The translations under genes and the position numbers were made by a program. This document shows, in pieces, positions 15,826 to 23,024 of a stretch of DNA of 31,772 nucleotides. The stretch is taken from positions 1-31,772 of the forward strand of contig JBKDJY010000081.1 of assembly GCA_046345275.1 (NCBI GenBank), written 5' to 3'. This stretch comes from Bacteroidota bacterium. Lineage in GTDB: Bacteria; Bacteroidota; Bacteroidia; B-17B0; Aurantibacillaceae. Positions within the stretch are counted from its first letter, which is position 1. Every line of letters starts with the position of its first letter. The notes below the pieces were generated by a model, which was given only the letters and a program-made list of their open reading frames with translations, had not been told where the DNA came from and made no database searches.

Positions 15826-18432
15826 ATGATAGATAAAAAAACACTTTCTGAACGTGATATTTGCACCAAGTTTATTACTCCTGCGGTTGAAAAAGCGGGT
15901 TGGAATAGACTGACACAGCTATTGGAGGAAGTTTCGTTCACGGACGGAAAAATTTATGTTAGAGGTAAACTAACGGCAAGAAGCAATAAAAAACGCGCCG
16001 ACTACATCCTGTATTTTAAACCCAACATTCCTGTTGCAATTATTGAAGCGAAAGACAATAAACATTCGGTGAGAGCCGGTATTCAACAGGCTTTGGACTA
16101 TGCTCAAATACTCGACATTCCTTGTGTTTTCAGCAGCAACGGTGACGGCTTTTTATTTCACGACCGCACGGCAACAGACGGAAATATTGAAACCGAAATT
16201 GCTATTGACGACTTTCCTACTCCCGAACAACTTTGGGAGAAATACAAAAAATACAAAGGCATCACAACGCCAACGGCTGAAAAAATTGCTTCGCAAGATT
16301 ATTACTTTGATGGAACAAACCGCAAACCAAGATACTATCAACAAATTGCAGTAAACAGAACTGTTGAAGCCATTGCCAACGAACAGAACCGAATTATTCT
16401 AGTAATGGCAACAGGTACAGGTAAAACTTATACTGCTTTTCAAATTATTTACCGTTTATGGAAATCAAGAAGTAAAAAAAGAATTTTGTTTCTTGCAGAC
16501 AGAACAGCTTTAATTGACCAAACAAGAAAGGGCGATTTTAAGCACTTTAAAGATAAAATGACTATCATTAAAAAGAAAGTCGTTTCTAACAAAGATGGTA
16601 AAGACGAACTAGTTTCCAATAAAAAAAGGGGAATTGATACTGAAGATAAAGCCTACGAAGTATTTCTTGGTTTATACCAAGGCTTAACTAATAATGAACC
16701 AGGTATTGAGGATGCTTATAAAGATTTTTCGCCTGACTTTTTTGACTTGATTGTAATTGACGAGTGTCACAGAGGAAGTGCAAAAGAAGACAGCAGTTGG
16801 AGAGAAATTTTATCCTATTTCAAAAACGCTACGCATATTGGTTTAACTGCCACGCCAAAGGAAACCAAAGAAACAAGCAACACCGAATATTTTGGTGACC
16901 CTGTTTATACCTATTCATTGAAACAAGGTATTGATGATGGTTTCCTTGCTCCTTATCGTGTAGTAAGAATTGGTTTGAATATAGATGCAGAAGGCTGGCG
17001 ACCAGATCAAGGCAAGACCGACAAAGATGGAAATGAATTTGAAGACAGAGTTTATAATCGCAAAGACTTTGACCGCAGTTTGGTAATTGAAGAACGAACA
17101 GACTTAGTTGCAAAAAAACTTACCGAGTTTTTAAAAGGTTACGACCGTTTTGCAAAAACGATTGTGTTTTGTGTGGACATTGACCACGCTGAACGAATGA
17201 GAACATCATTAGCCAAACAAAATGCTGATTTAGTTTCCGAGAATTACAAATACGTTATGCAAATAACTGGCGACAATGATGAAGGCAAACGGGAATTAGG
17301 CAACTTCATAAATCCTGAAGAAAAATATCCTGTCATTGCGACTACTTCTGAATTAATGACTACTGGCGTTGATGCTCAAACTTGTAAAGTAATTGTGTTG
17401 GATGCCAACATCAATTCAATGACCAAGTTCAAACAAATTATTGGTAGAGGAACGCGTATCAATGAAGAATTCGGAAAACTCTATTTCACCATTCTTGATT
17501 TTAGAAACGCAACCGATTTGTTTGCCGACAAAGATTTTGATGGCGACCCAATTCGAGTAAAACCAGTTTCGCAAGACGAAGATTTATCATTGGTGGTTAT
17601 TGAAGAAGAAGAAAACACTGTAACAGTTTTAGATGAAGCTACAGGCGAAGAAATTGTATTTGAAAAAGCACAAATTCGTTATCCTGATGGTTCAAAATTA
17701 GGAGGCAATTGGGTTGCTAGAGAACCTGATGCAAGAAGAGAAAAAATTTATGTAAATGGTGTTGATGTTTCTGTTTTGGTGAGCCGTGAAATATATTTTG
17801 ACCAACACGGAAAACCAATTACTACAAGTTTAAAAGACCATACCAAAGAAATCATCAAAGAAAACTTTGCTTCGTTAGATGACTTTTTAAATAAATGGAA
17901 CACCACCGCCCGCAAAGAAGCCATCATTGCTGAATTGCAAGAACAAGGCGTAATGGTGGAAGCTTTGTATGATGCCGTAAACAAAGACCTGCCCGCCTTT
18001 AAAGAAGGGAAATTTTATACTTATGTAATTGAATGCAAAGACGGAACTTTTTACAAAGGACATACACAAGATTTAAAAAGAAGATTTGATGAACACAAAA
18101 ATGGATTAGGAGCTGAATGGACTAAAAATCATAAAGTGAGAGATTTAGTTCATTTTGAAGTTTTTAATACAAAGGTAGAAGCAATTAATAGAGAAGATTA
18201 TTTTAAATCTGGTCGAGGTAGAGAATGGTTAAAAGCTGAAAGAGAGAAAGGATTGTTGAACGGCAGGCAGGCGGGAGTGGATTTGTTCGACTTGATTTGT
18301 CACGTTGCATTTGACCAACCACCATTAACACGCCAGGAAAGAGCCAATAACGTAAAAAAGCGAAACTATTTTACCAAGTATGGGCGACCAAGCCAAAAAA
18401 GTATTAGAGGCCTTGTTAGACAAATACGCTGA
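15826..18432 (+). CDS. hsdR: Type I restriction enzyme R subunit (EcoEI-like), main reading frame; carries an internal GIY-YIG insert and ends prematurely after a frameshift
   Basis: N-terminal PD-(D/E)xK nuclease region (ADYILY...AIIEAKD). SF2 motor motifs are MATGTGKT, VIDECHRG and QIIGRGTR. The C-terminal domain begins EcoEI_R_C-like (DLFDLICHVAFDQPPLTRQERA). From about 18382 the frame reads unrelated residues (GRPSQKSIRGLVRQIR*). Confidence 0.9.
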   Translation: MIDKKTLSERDICTKFITPAVEKAGWNRLTQLLEEVSFTDGKIYVRGKLTARSNKKRADYILYFKPNIPVAIIEAKDNKHSVRAGIQQALDYAQILDIPCVFSSNGDGFLFHDRTATDGNIETEIAIDDFPTPEQLWEKYKKYKGITTPTAEKIASQDYYFDGTNRKPRYYQQIAVNRTVEAIANEQNRIILVMATGTGKTYTAFQIIYRLWKSRSKKRILFLADRTALIDQTRKGDFKHFKDKMTIIKKKVVSNKDGKDELVSNKKRGIDTEDKAYEVFLGLYQGLTNNEPGIEDAYKDFSPDFFDLIVIDECHRGSAKEDSSWREILSYFKNATHIGLTATPKETKETSNTEYFGDPVYTYSLKQGIDDGFLAPYRVVRIGLNIDAEGWRPDQGKTDKDGNEFEDRVYNRKDFDRSLVIEERTDLVAKKLTEFLKGYDRFAKTIVFCVDIDHAERMRTSLAKQNADLVSENYKYVMQITGDNDEGKRELGNFINPEEKYPVIATTSELMTTGVDAQTCKVIVLDANINSMTKFKQIIGRGTRINEEFGKLYFTILDFRNATDLFADKDFDGDPIRVKPVSQDEDLSLVVIEEEENTVTVLDEATGEEIVFEKAQIRYPDGSKLGGNWVAREPDARREKIYVNGVDVSVLVSREIYFDQHGKPITTSLKDHTKEIIKENFASLDDFLNKWNTTARKEAIIAELQEQGVMVEALYDAVNKDLPAFKEGKFYTYVIECKDGTFYKGHTQDLKRRFDEHKNGLGAEWTKNHKVRDLVHFEVFNTKVEAINREDYFKSGRGREWLKAEREKGLLNGRQAGVDLFDLICHVAFDQPPLTRQERANNVKKRNYFTKYGRPSQKSIRGLVRQIR
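17988..18277 (+). mobile_element. In-frame GIY-YIG nuclease module (about 96 codons) inserted in hsdR, bounded by GC-rich imperfect inverted repeats
   Basis: The translation KFYTYVIECKDGTFYKGHTQDLKRRFDEHKNGLGAEWTK...FNTKVEAINREDYFK has the GIY..YIG..R..E layout. The insert is visibly more AT-rich than the flanking hsdR. The termini cctgcccgcc (17988-17997) and ggcaggcagg (18262-18271) pair 9/10. Confidence 0.6.
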
Positions 18433-18592
18433 TGAAGGCATCACAAATATTGAAAGCATTGAAGTATTGAGAGTAAATCCATTTGATGAATTTGGAAGTC
18501 CTATGGAAATTTTCAGTGAGTTTGGAAGCAAAGAAAATTATTTGCAAGCCGTAAAAGAATTAGAAATTGAATTGTATAAAAATATAGGATAG
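18380..18592 (+). CDS. hsdR: C-terminal remainder of HsdR (rest of the EcoEI_R_C-type domain) in the next reading frame
   Basis: GDQAKKVLEALLDKYADEGITNIESIEVLRVNPFDEFGSPMEIFSEFGSKENYLQAVKELEIELY continues the domain begun in the upstream frame. Removing one G from GGG at 18382-18384 joins ...FTKYG to DQAKKV. Confidence 0.8.
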   Translation: MGDQAKKVLEALLDKYADEGITNIESIEVLRVNPFDEFGSPMEIFSEFGSKENYLQAVKELEIELYKNIG

Positions 18593-18600
18593 ATAAATTG

Positions 18601-18647
18601 GAATGGGTTGAAACCTATTCTGTAAAAAAAATAGGGTTTAGCCAAAA
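18601..18647. repeat. REP-like hairpins on the left flank of the RAYT gene
   Basis: Imperfect palindrome gaatgggtt-ga-aacctattc (18601-18620). The element atagggtttagccaaaa (18631-18647) matches the reverse complement of 19097-19113 at 16/17 positions. Confidence 0.7.
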
Positions 18648-18656
18648 AAAATAAAA

Positions 18657-19094
18657 ATGCCATTTGTTAAAGTATATATCCATTTTGTTTGGAGTACAAA
18701 AAATAGATATCCATTCTTAGATTCAAAAGAATTGAGACTTAAAACATGGAATCATATAAGAGAAAATGCCAAAGAGAAAGGAATTTTTATTGATTTCATA
18801 AATGGATATTCAGACCATTGCCATTGTTTAGTTTCATTAAGTATTGATCAGACTATTCAAAAAGTCATGCAATTGATTAAAGGTGAATCTTCCTATTGGA
18901 TAAACAAACACGGTTTGACAAAAGAAAAGTTTGAATGGCAAGATGAGTATTTTGCAGTTTCAGTTTCGGAATCTATAATTGACAAAGTCAGAGAATATAT
19001 TAAAAATCAAGAAGAGCATCATAGCAAAAAAACATTTCAGGAGGAATATGATGAATTTATTAGCAAATATGAATTTGAGAAATTTAAAGGATAA
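18657..19094 (+). CDS. IS200/IS605-like Y1 (HUH) transposase, REP-associated tyrosine transposase (RAYT) type
   Basis: 145 aa. N-terminus YIHFVWSTKNR. The HUH motif is in SDHCHCLVSL. KGESSYWIN is present, and the C-terminal helix EYIKNQEEHH carries the catalytic-Tyr signature (YI..Q). Inverted REP hairpins flank the gene. Confidence 0.85.
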   Translation: MPFVKVYIHFVWSTKNRYPFLDSKELRLKTWNHIRENAKEKGIFIDFINGYSDHCHCLVSLSIDQTIQKVMQLIKGESSYWINKHGLTKEKFEWQDEYFAVSVSESIIDKVREYIKNQEEHHSKKTFQEEYDEFISKYEFEKFKG

Positions 19095-19096
19095 TA

Positions 19097-19255
19097 TTTT
19101 GGCTAAAGCCTATGAAGGAATTGAATTTATTTGTCCTCCTGCTAAAGCAGGAGGCAATTCAAAAGCAGGAGGCAATTCAAATTTCATTTCCTTTAATAGG
19201 AATGTGGCTTTAGCCCATTCCATTAAAAACAAATAAGTAAAAATGGCTTTAGCCA
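19097..19255. repeat. REP/BIME-like hairpin cluster on the right flank of the RAYT gene
   Basis: Elements seen: ttttggctaaagcctat (19097-19113); hairpin cctcctgc-taaa-gcaggagg (19135-19154); an 18-nt tandem duplication agcaggaggcaattcaaa x2 (19146-19181); hairpin ggaatgtggc-ttta-gcccattcc (19199-19221); palindrome tggctttagcca (19244-19255). Confidence 0.75.
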
Positions 19256-19272
19256 AACAAAATAACTAACAA

Positions 19273-20709
19273 ATGAGCAACATATCAGGCATAATAAAAA
19301 GCATTCAAAACATCATGTGGCAAGACACAGGCTTGAATGGCGACGCACAGCGCATTGAGCAATTAGGCTGGATGCTTTTTCTAAAAATATTTTCAGATAA
19401 AGACAAAGAGCTAGAGTTGCTGGACGACAAATACACATCTCCAATTCCCGACAAATTTCATTGGGTAAAAGAAAAAGGAAATTGGGCGGGTGATGATGAA
19501 GGCATGACAGGCGATGAATTGTTGGAGTTTGTAGACAGACAATTGTTTCCAGCACTTCGCAATTTAGATTTAAGCACCGGCAACCAACGTGCAGTAATTG
19601 TGAGAGAAGTATTTGAAGGCAACAACAACTATATGAAAAGCGGCATCAACATTCGCAAAGTGTTGAACAAGCTCAACGAAATTGATTTTAACATAGCCAA
19701 AGACCGCCACGCTTTTGGTGAATTGTACGAAATCATTTTAAAGGAATTACAAAGTGCAGGTAAAAGCGGAGAGTTTTATACGCCCAGAGCCATCACACAA
19801 TTTATTACCGAAACAATCAATCCGCAACTGGGCGAAAAAGTGCTTGACCCTGCTTGCGGAACAGGTGGTTATTTGACTTGTGCCATTGAGCATTTAAAAA
19901 AACAAGCTAAAAATGTAAAAGAACGCAAAAGTATTGAAGACAACATTGCAGGTTGGGAATACAAACCATTACCGTATTTGTTGGCAACAACCAATCTCAT
20001 TTTACACGACATTGAAATACCAAACATCAAATTTGGCGATGCTTTAGACCAACCGTTAAGCAACTTTACCGAAAAGCACCGAGTAAATGTCATATTAGCA
20101 AATCCGCCATTTGGTGGTATTGTAGCCAACAACAACGAAACTAATTTTCCACAAACTTATCGTACAAAAGAAAGTGCCGACTTGTTTTTAATTTTAATGA
20201 TTCACTTATTAAAGCAAGATGGACGAGCAGGAATTGTTTTGCCCGATGGCAGTTTAACAGGCGATGGCGTAAAGCAACGCATCCGACAAAAGTTGTTGGA
20301 AGATTGTAACCTACATACGATTATTCGTTTGCCAAATTCCGTTTTTCAACCTTACGCAACGGTGGCTACCAATTTGTTGTTTTTTGATAAGGGCAAACCC
20401 ACTAAAGACATTTGGTATTACGAACACCGTATGCCCGAAGGGTATAAAGCATACAACAAAACACGACCAATTAAAGTTGAAGAATTTGAACCGATTAAAA
20501 AATGGTGGAACAAACGCAAAGAAAGTGATATTGCGTGGAAAGTAAACATTAAAACGATTATTGAACGTGGTTACGATTTGGATATTAAGAATCCTACCAA
20601 ACCCGAAGAAGAAAAAGAATACAATAGTGCAGAGCTGATGGAAATGCTAAATGCTTCTTTTGAGAAAAGCCATCAATTGTTGAACCAACTTAAAAAGGCG
20701 ATGAAATGA
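19273..20709 (+). CDS. hsdM: Type I restriction-modification N6-adenine DNA methyltransferase subunit M
   Basis: 478 aa. HsdM N-terminal domain. The SAM motif is LDPACGTGGYL and the catalytic motif is LANPPFGG. Confidence 0.93.
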   Translation: MSNISGIIKSIQNIMWQDTGLNGDAQRIEQLGWMLFLKIFSDKDKELELLDDKYTSPIPDKFHWVKEKGNWAGDDEGMTGDELLEFVDRQLFPALRNLDLSTGNQRAVIVREVFEGNNNYMKSGINIRKVLNKLNEIDFNIAKDRHAFGELYEIILKELQSAGKSGEFYTPRAITQFITETINPQLGEKVLDPACGTGGYLTCAIEHLKKQAKNVKERKSIEDNIAGWEYKPLPYLLATTNLILHDIEIPNIKFGDALDQPLSNFTEKHRVNVILANPPFGGIVANNNETNFPQTYRTKESADLFLILMIHLLKQDGRAGIVLPDGSLTGDGVKQRIRQKLLEDCNLHTIIRLPNSVFQPYATVATNLLFFDKGKPTKDIWYYEHRMPEGYKAYNKTRPIKVEEFEPIKKWWNKRKESDIAWKVNIKTIIERGYDLDIKNPTKPEEEKEYNSAELMEMLNASFEKSHQLLNQLKKAMK

Positions 20710-21590
20710 GTTCGTCGTTAAAAATATCCATTCGTTTTTTTAATGATCGCGAAGTACGTGCCGTTTGGGATGAGCAAGATGCCAAATGGTGGTTTTCTGT
20801 ATTGGATGTTGTGGGTATTCTGAACGAAGAAAACGACTACAACAAAGTAAGGAACTATTGGAAATACCTCAAAGCCAAGTTAAAGAAAGAGAATAACGAA
20901 CTGGTTAGTGCCACTACCCAGTTGAAATTTTTAGCACCCGATGGCAAAATGCGTTTAGCAGATATGCTTGACAGCGATGGGGTAACCGCATTAGCTAAAA
21001 ATTTCCCCAACAATAGGGCAATGAAATTTTTAGATTGGTTTTTATACAGCGACACTAGCATTGACGGGCAAAGTAAGAAAAAAGCCTACACCTTGTTTGA
21101 AAGCAATTTGATAAACGAATTTGAGGTAGGCACCACCAAAGGTTTACAACAAATACACGCTTATTTGTTTGGTGGCTTGTATGAATTTGCCGGGCAAATT
21201 AGAGAAAAAAGCATTTCGAAAGGGGGCTATCAGTTTGTGTATGCACAGCAATTAAAAAACACTTTGCGAAAAATTGATGCCATGCCACAAACTACTTTGG
21301 ATGAAATTATTTTGAAATACACTGAAATGAACAAGGCACACCCCTTTATGGAAGGCAATGGCAGAAGCACCAGAATATGGCTGGATATGATGCTAAAAAA
21401 ACAACTTAAAAAATGTGTAGACTGGAGCAAAATAAAAAAAGATCAGTATATGAATGCCATGATAATTAGTACCGTTGATTACACGGTGCTACTGCAACTC
21501 ATTACAAAGGCGCTGACCCCTAAAATTAAGGACCGAGAAATGTATATGAAAGGCATTGATTATTCTTATTATTATGAGGAAAACAATTAA
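20706..21590 (+). CDS. Bro-N-like DNA-binding domain fused to a Fic (AMPylase/filamentation) domain
   Basis: 294 aa. The N-terminus FNDREVRAVWDEQDAKWWFSVLDVVGIL...YWKYLKAKLKKE...QLKFLAPDGKMRLAD is Bro-N/DinD-like. The C-terminus has the canonical Fic active site HPFMEGNGRSTR. The ATG overlaps the hsdM stop (ATGA). Confidence 0.85.
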   Translation: MSSSLKISIRFFNDREVRAVWDEQDAKWWFSVLDVVGILNEENDYNKVRNYWKYLKAKLKKENNELVSATTQLKFLAPDGKMRLADMLDSDGVTALAKNFPNNRAMKFLDWFLYSDTSIDGQSKKKAYTLFESNLINEFEVGTTKGLQQIHAYLFGGLYEFAGQIREKSISKGGYQFVYAQQLKNTLRKIDAMPQTTLDEIILKYTEMNKAHPFMEGNGRSTRIWLDMMLKKQLKKCVDWSKIKKDQYMNAMIISTVDYTVLLQLITKALTPKIKDREMYMKGIDYSYYYEENN

Positions 21591-21602: not shown

Positions 21603-23024
21603 ATGAGTTGGAAGAAAGTAAAGCTAAAGGAAATATTGAAACAATACCGAATAGAACTTTTGGTACAAAATGATATTGAATATAAACAAGTGACAATATC
21701 AAAATATGATGGTATCACTTTTAGAGGAACTAGAATAGGAAGAGAAATAGGGCGTAAAAGACAATTTCAAATTGACCTTAAAAGGTTTCCCAATACGTTA
21801 ATGTTCGTGAGGCAAGGTGTTCAAGATGGCTCAATAGGGATTGCACCGATCGAGGTTGAGGGTTGCATAGCAACTGAAAATATGCCAATGTTCTCCATTG
21901 AAGGAATAAATTTGGAATACCTAAAACTTCTTTTGAAGTCACCATATTTTAATGATGAATTAAATAAAATTCAAACAACTGGCTCAGCTCAAAAATCCAT
22001 TCATGAAAGAGAAATATTGGAAATTGAAATTCCATTTCCTGATTTTGAAGAGCAAGAAGATATTGTTCGCCAATTGTCAAGTAAAAAAAATAACTCATTA
22101 GAAATCTCAACTGAACTCAGCCACCAACTCACCTTAGTAAAAAAACTCCGACAGCAATTATTGCAGGATGCTGTGCAAGGCAAATTGGTGGCTCCCTCTC
22201 CTTTGGAGAGGGCGGGGGGAGAGGTCGAACCAGCAAGCGAATTGCTCAAAAAGATAAAGGAGGAACGCCTGAATAGGGTTGGGTTTCAACCCGACCCCAA
22301 AAAAGATATTGGGCTAAAGCCCAACAAATTTTCTAACCATAGCTCGGGGTTAAAACCCCGAGCTATTAAAGAACTACCACCCATCAAACCCGAAGATATT
22401 CCTTTTGAAATTCCTGAAAATTGGGTGTGGTGTAGGTTGGGGGAGATTGCAGAAATTGGAACAGGAGCAACTCCATTAACTTCAAATCCTGAATATTATG
22501 AGAATGGAGACATTCCTTGGATTACAAGTTCAGCTACTAATAATTTATTTATAATTGAACCAGAATTATATATTACCGAAAAGGCATTAAAAGAGACAAA
22601 TTGCAAGGTTTACCCCGCAGGAACTTTAGTTGTCGCTATGTATGGACAAGGTAAAACTAGGGGTCAAATCACCGAATTGAATTTCCCTGCTGCAACTAAT
22701 CAAGCTTGTGCCACAATTACTTTATTTTTTAATGAATTCACTTTGAGAAAATATGTGAAATTGTTTTTTCAAAAAATCTATAATGAAATTAGAGAATTGG
22801 CGCAAGGTGGAGCACAACCAAATTTGAATATGGGAAAGGTTAGAGATACTATAATTTCCCTTCCTCCACTTGCAGAACAAAACCGAATCGTTCAAAAATT
22901 AGACGAGCTAATGCAGTATTGCAATGAGTTAGAAACAAGCATCAAACAAAGTGAATCGCAAAATTCAACACTACTGCAACAGGTTTTGAAAGAAGCATTG
23001 AGGAAAGAACCTTTGGAGGTGTAA
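21603..23024 (+). CDS. hsdS: Type I restriction-modification specificity subunit S
   Basis: 473 aa. Two target-recognition domains are separated by a conserved helical spacer (LRQQLLQDAVQGKLV ... EPASELLKKIKEE ... IPFEIPENWVWCRLGEI). A second conserved helix lies at the C-terminus (LAEQNRIVQKLDELMQYCNELE). Confidence 0.9.
   Translation: MSWKKVKLKEILKQYRIELLVQNDIEYKQVTISKYDGITFRGTRIGREIGRKRQFQIDLKRFPNTLMFVRQGVQDGSIGIAPIEVEGCIATENMPMFSIEGINLEYLKLLLKSPYFNDELNKIQTTGSAQKSIHEREILEIEIPFPDFEEQEDIVRQLSSKKNNSLEISTELSHQLTLVKKLRQQLLQDAVQGKLVAPSPLERAGGEVEPASELLKKIKEERLNRVGFQPDPKKDIGLKPNKFSNHSSGLKPRAIKELPPIKPEDIPFEIPENWVWCRLGEIAEIGTGATPLTSNPEYYENGDIPWITSSATNNLFIIEPELYITEKALKETNCKVYPAGTLVVAMYGQGKTRGQITELNFPAATNQACATITLFFNEFTLRKYVKLFFQKIYNEIRELAQGGAQPNLNMGKVRDTIISLPPLAEQNRIVQKLDELMQYCNELETSIKQSESQNSTLLQQVLKEALRKEPLEV
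22193..22363. repeat. Four REP-like hairpins embedded in-frame in the hsdS central spacer
   Basis: Hairpins: ccctctcc-ttt-ggagaggg (22193-22211); gggttgggtt-tc-aacccgaccc (22275-22296, one G.T); ttgggc-taaa-gcccaa (22308-22323); agctcggggtt-aa-aaccccgagct (22340-22363, perfect 11 bp). The third shares the GGC-TAAA-GCC core of the RAYT-flanking REPs. Confidence 0.75.

Follow-up and report, generated by a model that had tools for sequence, protein, structure and literature searches.

A 680-nt insert between hsdR and hsdM, in a type I restriction-modification (R-M) operon of a Bacteroidota bacterium, is probably a REPtron-like unit, composed of a Y1 transesterase of TnpA-Y1 subclass 1.2 that acts on single-stranded DNA (ssDNA) and of a cognate hairpin block of about 165 nt. 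Systems in which a REP-associated tyrosine transposase (RAYT) is coupled to repetitive extragenic palindromes (REPs) or their doublets (REPINs), here called REPtrons, are the classic example of non-autonomous repeats whose population is maintained by one single-copy transposase. To our knowledge, they are essentially restricted to Proteobacteria and to class 2 enzymes. The insert lies at positions 18,593-19,272 of a window of 31,772 nt, which is the whole stretch of DNA analysed (contig JBKDJY010000081.1 of assembly GCA_046345275.1; 3.2 Mb, 31.8% G+C, 213 contigs). It consists of a half-block of hairpins, the Y1 gene and a full block. A first-pass annotation of the same DNA had described it as a RAYT cassette with REP hairpins. 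The intact, solitary Y1/HUH gene between inverted hairpins was confirmed, and the 145-residue open reading frame (ORF), the inverted pair, the further hairpins, the 8-bp hairpin and the 18-nt tandem duplication are all present at the positions then given. The nature of the enzyme and the origin of the flanking repeats were revised.

The Y1 enzyme and its hairpin block

The 145-residue protein matches the Pfam family Y1_Tnp (E = 2.1e-28) and passes the NCBIfam model of IS200/IS605 transposases (NF033573, 64.7 bits against a cut-off of 55). It has the motifs DHCH, which includes H54 and H56, WQ (W94-Q95) and YIKNQEEHH, which includes the predicted catalytic residue Y114. Residues H54, H56, W94, Y114, Q118, H121 and H122 do not vary among 38 aligned homologues, the most distant of which has 34% identity. 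The nearest sequences among solved structures, found with phmmer, are the TnpA proteins of ISHp608 (1.3e-7) and ISDra2, and E. coli TnpA-REP (4ER8) gave no sequence match in this search at E up to 1. An AlphaFold (AF2) model was obtained with a mean predicted local distance difference test (pLDDT) score of 90.2. The first 29 Foldseek matches of this model are TnpA chains of ISDra2, IS608 and IS200, from 8.8e-9 (ISDra2) to 5.9e-7, and the RAYT structure 4ER8 stands at rank 30 (6.1e-6). An identity as a class 2 RAYT, which the first-pass annotation had favoured, was rejected: the tyrosine motif is YIKNQEEHH and not Y---NP, the RAYT model REP_Tyr_transpos (NF047646) was failed with 30.6 bits against a cut-off of 80, and the IS200-type folds, those of IS608 and ISDra2 in particular, are nearer.

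The protein corresponds to subclass 1.2 of TnpA-Y1, described as proteins of about 148 residues with the motifs DH[IV]H, WQ and YIKNQKEHH and a conserved C-terminal tail, which are found in low copy number and are confined to Bacteroidetes and Cyanobacteria (Quentin, Siguier, Chandler & Fichant 2018, BMC Genomics 19:475, PMC6006769). In the same work, the subclass is related to IS200 but 'without IS properties' (IS, insertion sequence), is listed as 'REP: no', and is described without a REP-like partner and without terminal secondary structures. The Y1 gene is present in a single copy in its own genome, and the host fits the range of the subclass, the AsnS protein encoded in the window being nearest to those of uncultured Bacteroidota and of Chitinophagaceae, which points to an uncultured lineage close to Chitinophagales. 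Judged from motifs and predicted fold, the ORF codes for an intact HUH/Y1 enzyme that is assigned to subclass 1.2.

The complete hairpin block downstream of the gene has the order H1<, H2<, H3>, H1>, in which the arrowheads give the orientation, and its ends are the inverted sequences TTGGCTAAAGCC/GGCTTTAGCCAA. It is separated from the ATG of hsdM by an A-rich segment of 15 nt. When folded as ssDNA, H1< of the block pairs with H1> (dG of -34.7 kcal/mol, z of -5.6), while the upstream half-block folds weakly (z of -2.2). The anatomy of the block is REPIN-like, and the block can fold back on itself. The segment atagggtttagccaaaa at 18631-18647 and the segment at 19097-19113 form an inverted pair with 16 of 17 positions complementary (94%). 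Furthermore, a direct repeat of 32 nt, 81% identical, is found before the Y1 ATG (18623-18654) and before the hsdM ATG (19234-19265). The feet of the hairpins are rich in A and T (TTTT for H1, TTGT for H2 and AATA for H3), and on neither strand does a guide tetranucleotide of the type GT[AG]G, either GTAG or GTGG, stand at the foot of any of the three hairpins.

Conservation and dispersal of the block

A scan of species-representative genomes gave more than 540 relatives of the Y1 protein, of which the best 80 (77-95% identity) were used. These loci, with labels such as L021, are biased towards kin of the R-M-borne query. A second, unbiased set was collected with HsdM as the query (L101-L180, for example L154), and its best 80 operons, with HsdM 83-97% identical, come from many orders. 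The best 80 Y1 relatives span Chitinophagales, Cytophagales, Saprospiraceae, Flavobacteriales, Bacteroidales and Sphingobacteriales. In 61 of these 80 loci, TTGGCTAAAGCCAA is found within 45 nt of the last codon, and about 25 nt beyond it there is a hairpin of the form CCTCCNG-loop-CNGGAGG-CAATTCA (CCTCCNG...CNGGAGGCAATTCA). When 54 of these downstream regions were aligned, the GGC-TAAA-GCC core of H1 showed no variation. In this alignment, 97% of the cells of the H2 stem are paired and five of its eight pairs show compensatory changes; none of 500 shuffles was as good and none of six slid registers came close.

The full order in the relatives is H1<, H2<, H3> or an inverted H2 (one to several), H1>, followed by 13-30 nt to the next start. 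The 3' arm of H2 and its tail are often in tandem, with up to more than 10 repeats, and in L091 the two halves of the block are exact inverses of each other. At the cobT/cobS site of Flavobacterium, permuted forms are found, [Y1][block], [block][Y1] and [block][Y1][block]. In the cassettes compared, the blocks always take up the interval between one stop codon and the following start. Homologues at 48-66% identity, from the same genus and class and in unrelated contexts, all have GGCTTTAGCC 10-25 nt before the ATG, and most of them have GGCTAAAGCC just 3' of the stop. The stems of their outer hairpins vary, while the apex is constant, either CTTTAG or CTAAAG. This pattern is far beyond chance. 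In dozens of unrelated contexts, homologous genes are found next to these motifs, with neither their order nor their orientation changed. The comparison identifies the hairpins as a conserved partner element of the Y1 gene.

The same hairpins could also act at the level of RNA, as terminators, mRNA stabilisers or processing sites, with an incidental adjacency to the Y1 gene. The compensatory changes in H2 would suit an RNA hairpin equally well, the blocks occupy the stop-to-start space, and REPs of E. coli are known to affect mRNA stability. However, no Rfam family matched at E up to 1, and neither an intrinsic terminator nor a terminator-like site was predicted at the locus. Moreover, the motifs travel with the gene to unrelated operons and are absent from the hsdR/hsdM junction when it holds other cargo, and gene-less copies lie between convergent and divergent genes alike. 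H1 is found in both orientations with the asymmetry of its loop kept, which argues for a strand-specific recognition of DNA. We consider the RNA-level explanation very improbable. The first-pass annotation had further proposed that the insert uncouples the transcription of hsdR from that of hsdM; no support was found for this, given the lack of a predicted intrinsic terminator and the TAATG overlaps described below for eight relatives.

The dispersal of the block was first considered in its own genome, with searches for exact 10-mers, for the 17- and 27-nt units with up to four mismatches, and for H2, H3 and GGAGGCAATTCA, with censuses of the top 16-mers and of hairpins with 4-nt loops, and with an nhmmer profile built from 80 blocks. 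The exact, fuzzy and profile searches of this genome found the modules at this locus alone, together with a weak match in hsdS (22267-22410, E = 0.025 with the profile). GGCTTTAGCC or GGCTAAAGCC occurs 10 times in the genome, with three occurrences at the locus and one in hsdS. No copy of the longer units, of H2, of H3 or of the GGAGGCAATTCA tail was found in the genome beyond the locus, and the two censuses gave no related abundant 16-mer or hairpin class. The 16-mer census did detect, outside the window, an unrelated repeat family of about 21 copies with the core TTATACTTGCAGATAAAATGATATAATC. In 61 relatives, GGCTTTAGCC is present in 0-34 copies per genome, a count from a motif too short to be informative, and in five other cassette-carrying genomes H3 is confined to the cassette. 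Taken alone, the confinement of the hairpins in the own genome would refute a REP reading of them; the relatives change this picture.

The exact H3 hairpin was found in at least 120 stretches of public genomes, mostly from Cyclobacteriaceae among the matches listed. Of these stretches, 78 were examined over 8 kb each, and 58 of the 78 have no Y1 gene within this distance. Three Algoriphagus and two Cyclobacterium genomes have 11-23 copies of H3 each (at most two mismatches), distributed over several contigs, and a reversed control hairpin has no copy in the same five genomes. Each of them has one close Y1 gene (77-80% identity) and 1-7 distant paralogues. The gene-less copies are either complete blocks or H3-H1 half-blocks. 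They are extragenic in 34 of 38 cases and are found with all orientations of the neighbouring genes, convergent and divergent alike. The REP idea of the first-pass annotation thus holds at the level of the family, where gene-less extragenic blocks exist in Algoriphagus and Cyclobacterium, and fails for the genome on which it was based. From the distribution of these sequences, the REPtron-like partnership appears to be active now, or to have been active formerly, in some lineages and to be confined in others, including the own genome.

The history of the gene was followed with 76 homologues compared with the window copy over the first 141 codons. The ratio of nonsynonymous to synonymous substitution rates (dN/dS) is about 0.06, and dS is 0.47 for L021 and above 1, near saturation, for the others. 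No internal stop is present in the 76 homologues over these codons, and L053 has a stop near the 3' end of the gene. The high protein identity (77-95%) across orders was at first read as recent horizontal transfer. This reading was rejected, and the identity reflects constraint, because dS is saturated for all homologues but L021. In a tree of 81 proteins, the copies at the cobT/cobS site of Flavobacterium are monophyletic, and so are the copies between sortilin-like genes of Leadbetterellaceae/Spirosomataceae, which fits vertical descent at a fixed site. The [Y1][block] and [block][Y1] forms at cobT/cobS belong to separate sub-clades. The alignment has too few columns to resolve the number of entries into R-M operons, and the starred branches of the tree are compatible with one origin per junction.

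These data bear on a simpler description of the insert as an ordinary autonomous IS of the IS200 group, which has transposed into the operon and whose direct H3-H1 modules represent the left and right subterminal hairpins. The NCBIfam IS200/IS605 model is passed, the nearest sequences and folds are those of IS608 and ISDra2 TnpA, a unit of about 680 nt is typical of IS200, H3-H1 stands in direct orientation on both sides of tnpA, and the unit is an insertion relative to empty sites. However, the gene is single copy in every genome checked, compared with a mean of 4.8 copies per genome at 99% identity for the IS of subclass 1.1 (PMC6006769). Homologues are separated by a saturated dS with a dN/dS of 0.06, and the loci are fixed across a genus or a family at cobT/cobS and at the sortilin-like genes, each monophyletic. 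Furthermore, most cassettes have no upstream hairpin, and the block exists and disperses without the gene, with inverted (H1) rather than distinct ends. An autonomous IS is therefore unlikely, and the REPtron-like unit is the reading that we retain.

The mechanism proposed for this unit is by analogy. The TnpA proteins of IS608 and ISDra2, and TnpA-REP of E. coli, bind folded single-strand hairpins and cut adjacent to them by a tyrosine of the C-terminal helix. In the same way, the subclass 1.2 enzyme would recognise its hairpins as folded single strands, as IS608 TnpA and E. coli TnpA-REP do, and would cut and rejoin DNA beside them. Blocks would be moved or copied in trans, which may give rise to local tandem arrays and permuted forms, and which would have produced a dispersed extragenic population in Cyclobacteriaceae and none beyond the operon in the own genome. 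The same chemistry on H1, H2 and H3 would fit the conserved catalytic residues, the loop asymmetry (CTTTAG versus CTAAAG), whose orientation is strictly preserved, the covariation of the stems, the half-site arrays and the gene-less copies.

Several observations weigh against the REPtron-like unit. The hairpins are undispersed in the own genome and in five others, so that the system may be inert here, and the 11-23 copies of Cyclobacteriaceae are far below classical REP/REPIN populations. The distant Y1 paralogues of the latter genomes could in principle be the active partner. The cassettes that have no hairpin at all upstream of the Y1 gene bear on what the minimal functional unit would be, and metagenome-assembled genomes may under-represent repeats. 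Finally, an enzyme able to cut or move the hairpins is inferred here by analogy.

The hsdR/hsdM junction and the rest of the operon

The coordinates of the insert, its modules and the neighbouring genes are given in Table 1.

Table 1 Features of the insert and of the surrounding R-M operon (positions in the window).
Feature	Position	Strand	Basis or remarks
Y1/HUH gene, 145 aa	18657-19094	+	Pfam, NCBIfam, motifs, AF2 fold; assigned to TnpA-Y1 subclass 1.2
Complete hairpin block (REPIN-like doublet)	19095-19268	+	Same order in relatives and gene-less copies; folding
H1<	19098-19110
H2<, 8-bp hairpin CCTCCTGC-TAAA-GCAGGAGG	19135-19154
18-nt tandem repeat, 2.1 copies, 100% matches	19144-19181		3' arm of H2 and tail, duplicated
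H3>, longer hairpin GGAATGTGGCTTTAGCCCATTCC	19199-19221
H1>	19245-19257		Holds GGCTTTAGCC at 19245-19254
GGC-TWWA-GCC units	19101-19110, 19206-19215, 19245-19254
Upstream half-block, degenerate and shortened	18593-18656	+	Aligns with H3-H1 modules; weak fold
H3' of the upstream half-block, ggaatgggttgaaacctattc	18600-18620
H1' of the upstream half-block	18631-18647		GGG where GGC is expected
hsdR, EcoAI/type IB family	15826-18592	+	Pfam, NCBIfam; upstream neighbour
hsdM	19273-20709	+	Pfam N6_Mtase and HsdM_N; downstream neighbour; start 15 nt from block end
Fic/Bro-N gene	20706-21590	+	Between hsdM and hsdS
hsdS	21603-23024	+
Hairpin-rich in-frame insert, 35 aa, central hsdS	22262-22372	+	TTGGGCTAAAGCCCAA (H1-type) and two other hairpins

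The hsdR/hsdM junction could be measured in 74 of the best 80 HsdM operons. It is empty in 23 of them, with 2-19 nt between the genes, typically ...ELYKTA* TAA GAAAGA ATG (consensus TAA-GAAAGA-ATG), and the HsdM relatives are 83-97% identical with or without an insert. Relative to these empty junctions, the 680-nt unit is an insertion, as the first-pass annotation had proposed. The other 51 junctions are filled, nine by Y1-type genes (five of the close type and four of a distant type, Y1b), 41 by other cargo in long inserts and one by a short palindrome. The other cargo is mostly of defence type: Schlafen/AlbA_2 (with HATPase_c_4), 23S-rRNA-IVP, GmrSD, PD-(D/E)XK, AAA/KAP ATPases, a Cap15-like domain, GIY-YIG, HNH and GNAT. 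The type I R-M operon is widely distributed, and its hsdR/hsdM junction serves as a general slot for cargo. GGCTTTAGCC is present in four of the five junctions with the close Y1 gene, in none of the 41 with other cargo and in none of the 23 empty ones. A recruitment of the cargo in the manner of an integron was considered and rejected, since the Y1 hairpins flank none of the 41 other-cargo junctions. In five operons of the HsdM set (L107, L108, L117, L144 and L162) the cassette lies between hsdM and hsdS or after fic.

In the version of the first-pass annotation, a RAYT cassette landed in the native hsdR-hsdM junction and duplicated it, including the leader of hsdM. The direct repeat of 27-32 nt that precedes both the Y1 ATG and the hsdM ATG had suggested this. 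However, the 23 empty junctions are unrelated to the repeat and refute the duplication. The segment 18593-18656 aligns, as a shortened and mutated H3-H1, with the modules before hsdM (here and in L026 and L062) and before hsdS (L035), and in other cassettes the H3-H1 module precedes hsdS, cobS or other, unrelated genes. Because of this alignment and of the dissimilar empty junctions, the 'leader' repeat is the H1 end of the block and belongs to the terminal H3-H1 module of the element itself, not to a target duplication. The earlier version is now scarcely credible. A real duplication of host sequence is found at L064:2940-3700 and L067:2940-3720, unlike at the window locus. There, a second copy of the ~55 nt that end the upstream methyltransferase gene (...GEPxxFYGK*) follows the cassette and gives a mini-ORF, from just after H1> to the native stop overlapping the next ATG, which looks like a way of keeping translational coupling.

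The contexts of the homologues allow for another role, in which the Y1 gene would be a domesticated accessory of defence operons. Its product would be an ssDNA nuclease expressed together with the R-M or CRISPR genes, and the hairpins would serve as regulatory or expression signals and not as mobile partners. About 25 of the 80 closest homologues are in type I R-M junctions and three are between cas9 and cas1. The slot also holds defence-type genes (Schlafen/AlbA_2, GmrSD, PD-(D/E)XK, Cap15-like) in 41 of 74 operons, eight loci have the sequence TAATG, in which the Y1 start overlaps with the hsdR or hsdM stop, and purifying selection is strong. However, the sample of 80 loci is biased to relatives of an R-M-borne query, many homologues are in housekeeping contexts (cobT/cobS, or between sortilin-like genes), the blocks disperse alone in Cyclobacteriaceae, and the tree is compatible with one origin per R-M junction. 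We regard an accessory of this kind as quite improbable when compared with the REPtron-like unit. The three CRISPR loci have the same Y1 cassette, with RuvC_III and HNH_4 domains in the upstream cas9 and with cas1 downstream, and are probably the Flavobacterium clade L079/L093/L098.

Blocks are also found inside hsdS. HsdS of L109, which is 62% identical, has a gap of 35 residues at the position of the hairpin-rich insert of the window, and this insert is possibly another copy of the repeat that has diverged. Complete canonical blocks (H1< H2< H3> H1>) occur in hsdS after a conserved QGKL at L151:4517-4665, L156:4710-4858 and L162:5088-5302. In L162, the frame was checked and the block is uninterrupted and read through as protein. 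For L151, in which hsdS is fragmented, and for L156, tblastn frames are the sole basis. In type I enzymes, the distance between the two half-sites depends on this central region of hsdS. A change in the specificity or expression of R-M systems is conceivable because the blocks enter the centre of hsdS in frame and the cassettes seize junctions with an overlap of stop and start. The proposal that the Y1 gene and its blocks remodel type I R-M operons in this manner is speculative and unlikely to be correct. If true, it would represent a new route of R-M diversification, driven by an enzyme of single-strand DNA.

Other features of these operons were noticed. A distant Y1b gene (33-36% identity, motif YINNQKQHH) is found in hsdR/hsdM junctions with a TAATG overlap (L035:951-1560, L038:60-670, L107, L108, L155 and L165). 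It is followed by different hairpins of its own, gaccctaaaagggtc, cgaccccttcggggtcg and caatcccttcaggattg, and L035 and L038 have both Y1 types in one operon. At L154:2375-2500, the 126-nt junction is a single long palindrome, nearly perfect and without relation to the Y1 hairpins. In the window, hsdR has a +1 frameshift near 18381-18383, where tatGGGcgacc at 18379-18389 has an extra G relative to L021 and all other relatives, and which splits the gene into frames 15826-18432 and 18380-18592. It corresponds to a pseudogene or to a sequencing error; if real, the restriction subunit would lack the end of its EcoEI_R_C domain. The same gene has an in-frame GIY-YIG domain of 97 residues (17986-18276), between ...EALYDAVNK and VDLFDLICH, which is found in none of the approximately 100 related HsdR genes examined. 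The Fic gene codes for an NmFic-type adenylyltransferase with an N-terminal Bro-N domain. Its start overlaps the stop of hsdM, and it has a counterpart (86-88% identity) in the same place in L107, L113 and L115.

Comparison with known systems

The unit resembles the published subclass 1.2 in the length of the enzyme, in the HuH, WQ and Y---Q--HH motifs, in a conserved C-terminal tail, in low copy number, in the host range and in a kinship to IS200 without the behaviour of an IS. It differs in the exact form of the HuH motif, DHCH where DH[IV]H is published, and in being accompanied by a conserved block of several hairpins, which has dispersed in some lineages. In the literature searched, we found no mention of partner repeats in this subclass. 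What the window adds is the series of empty and filled junctions, the explanation of the 'leader', the dispersal of the exact hairpin in Cyclobacteriaceae and the blocks in hsdS, with the frame checked in L162.

The fold, the catalytic residues, the size of the unit and the hairpins adjacent to the gene are shared with IS200/IS605 elements (IS200 of Salmonella, and TnpA of IS608 and ISDra2), and the same single-strand cut-and-rejoin chemistry would be expected. However, the present unit is not multi-copy, its loci are ancient and vertically kept, its partner DNA exists without the gene, and it appears to have no distinct left and right ends. Genes called 'IS200/IS605 family transposase' in Bacteroidota are often not insertion sequences.

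In the prr locus of E. coli, prrC lies between hsd genes. As in R-M operons of the prr type, additional genes are accommodated at the junctions and the order of the operon is unchanged. The difference is in the cargo, a Y1 gene accompanied by a repeat of its own, which also enters hsdS in frame. The R-M setting provides a comparative series of 23 empty sites, filled sites in two junctions, permuted forms and hsdS copies, from which ends, targets and consequences can be read.

The closest likeness in lifestyle is to the REPtron or REPIN-RAYT systems reportedly present in Proteobacteria, such as yafM/TnpA-REP of E. coli and the RAYTs of Pseudomonas, an account said to go back to Nunvar in 2010, Bertels and Rainey in 2011 and Ton-Hoang in 2012. 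In both, the Y1 gene is single copy and lies between inverted copies of its cognate hairpins, and the doublet, which is non-autonomous, can form one long hairpin. Both also show extragenic dispersal in some hosts, with local clusters or arrays, and a long persistence under purifying selection. In contrast with these systems, the enzyme here is of class 1 (Y---Q--HH) and not of class 2 (Y---NP), no tetranucleotide of the GTAG type stands at the foot of the hairpins, copies number tens rather than hundreds in the relatives, with none outside the locus in the own genome, and the unit is inside an operon and not between operons. Because subclass 1.2, published without partner repeats, has a conserved multi-hairpin partner, the comparison suggests that another branch of the family may have acquired, or retained, the lifestyle of a REPtron. 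The partner is dispersed in certain Bacteroidota and dormant in other members of the phylum, and its hairpins H1, H2 and H3 provide defined substrates for biochemistry.

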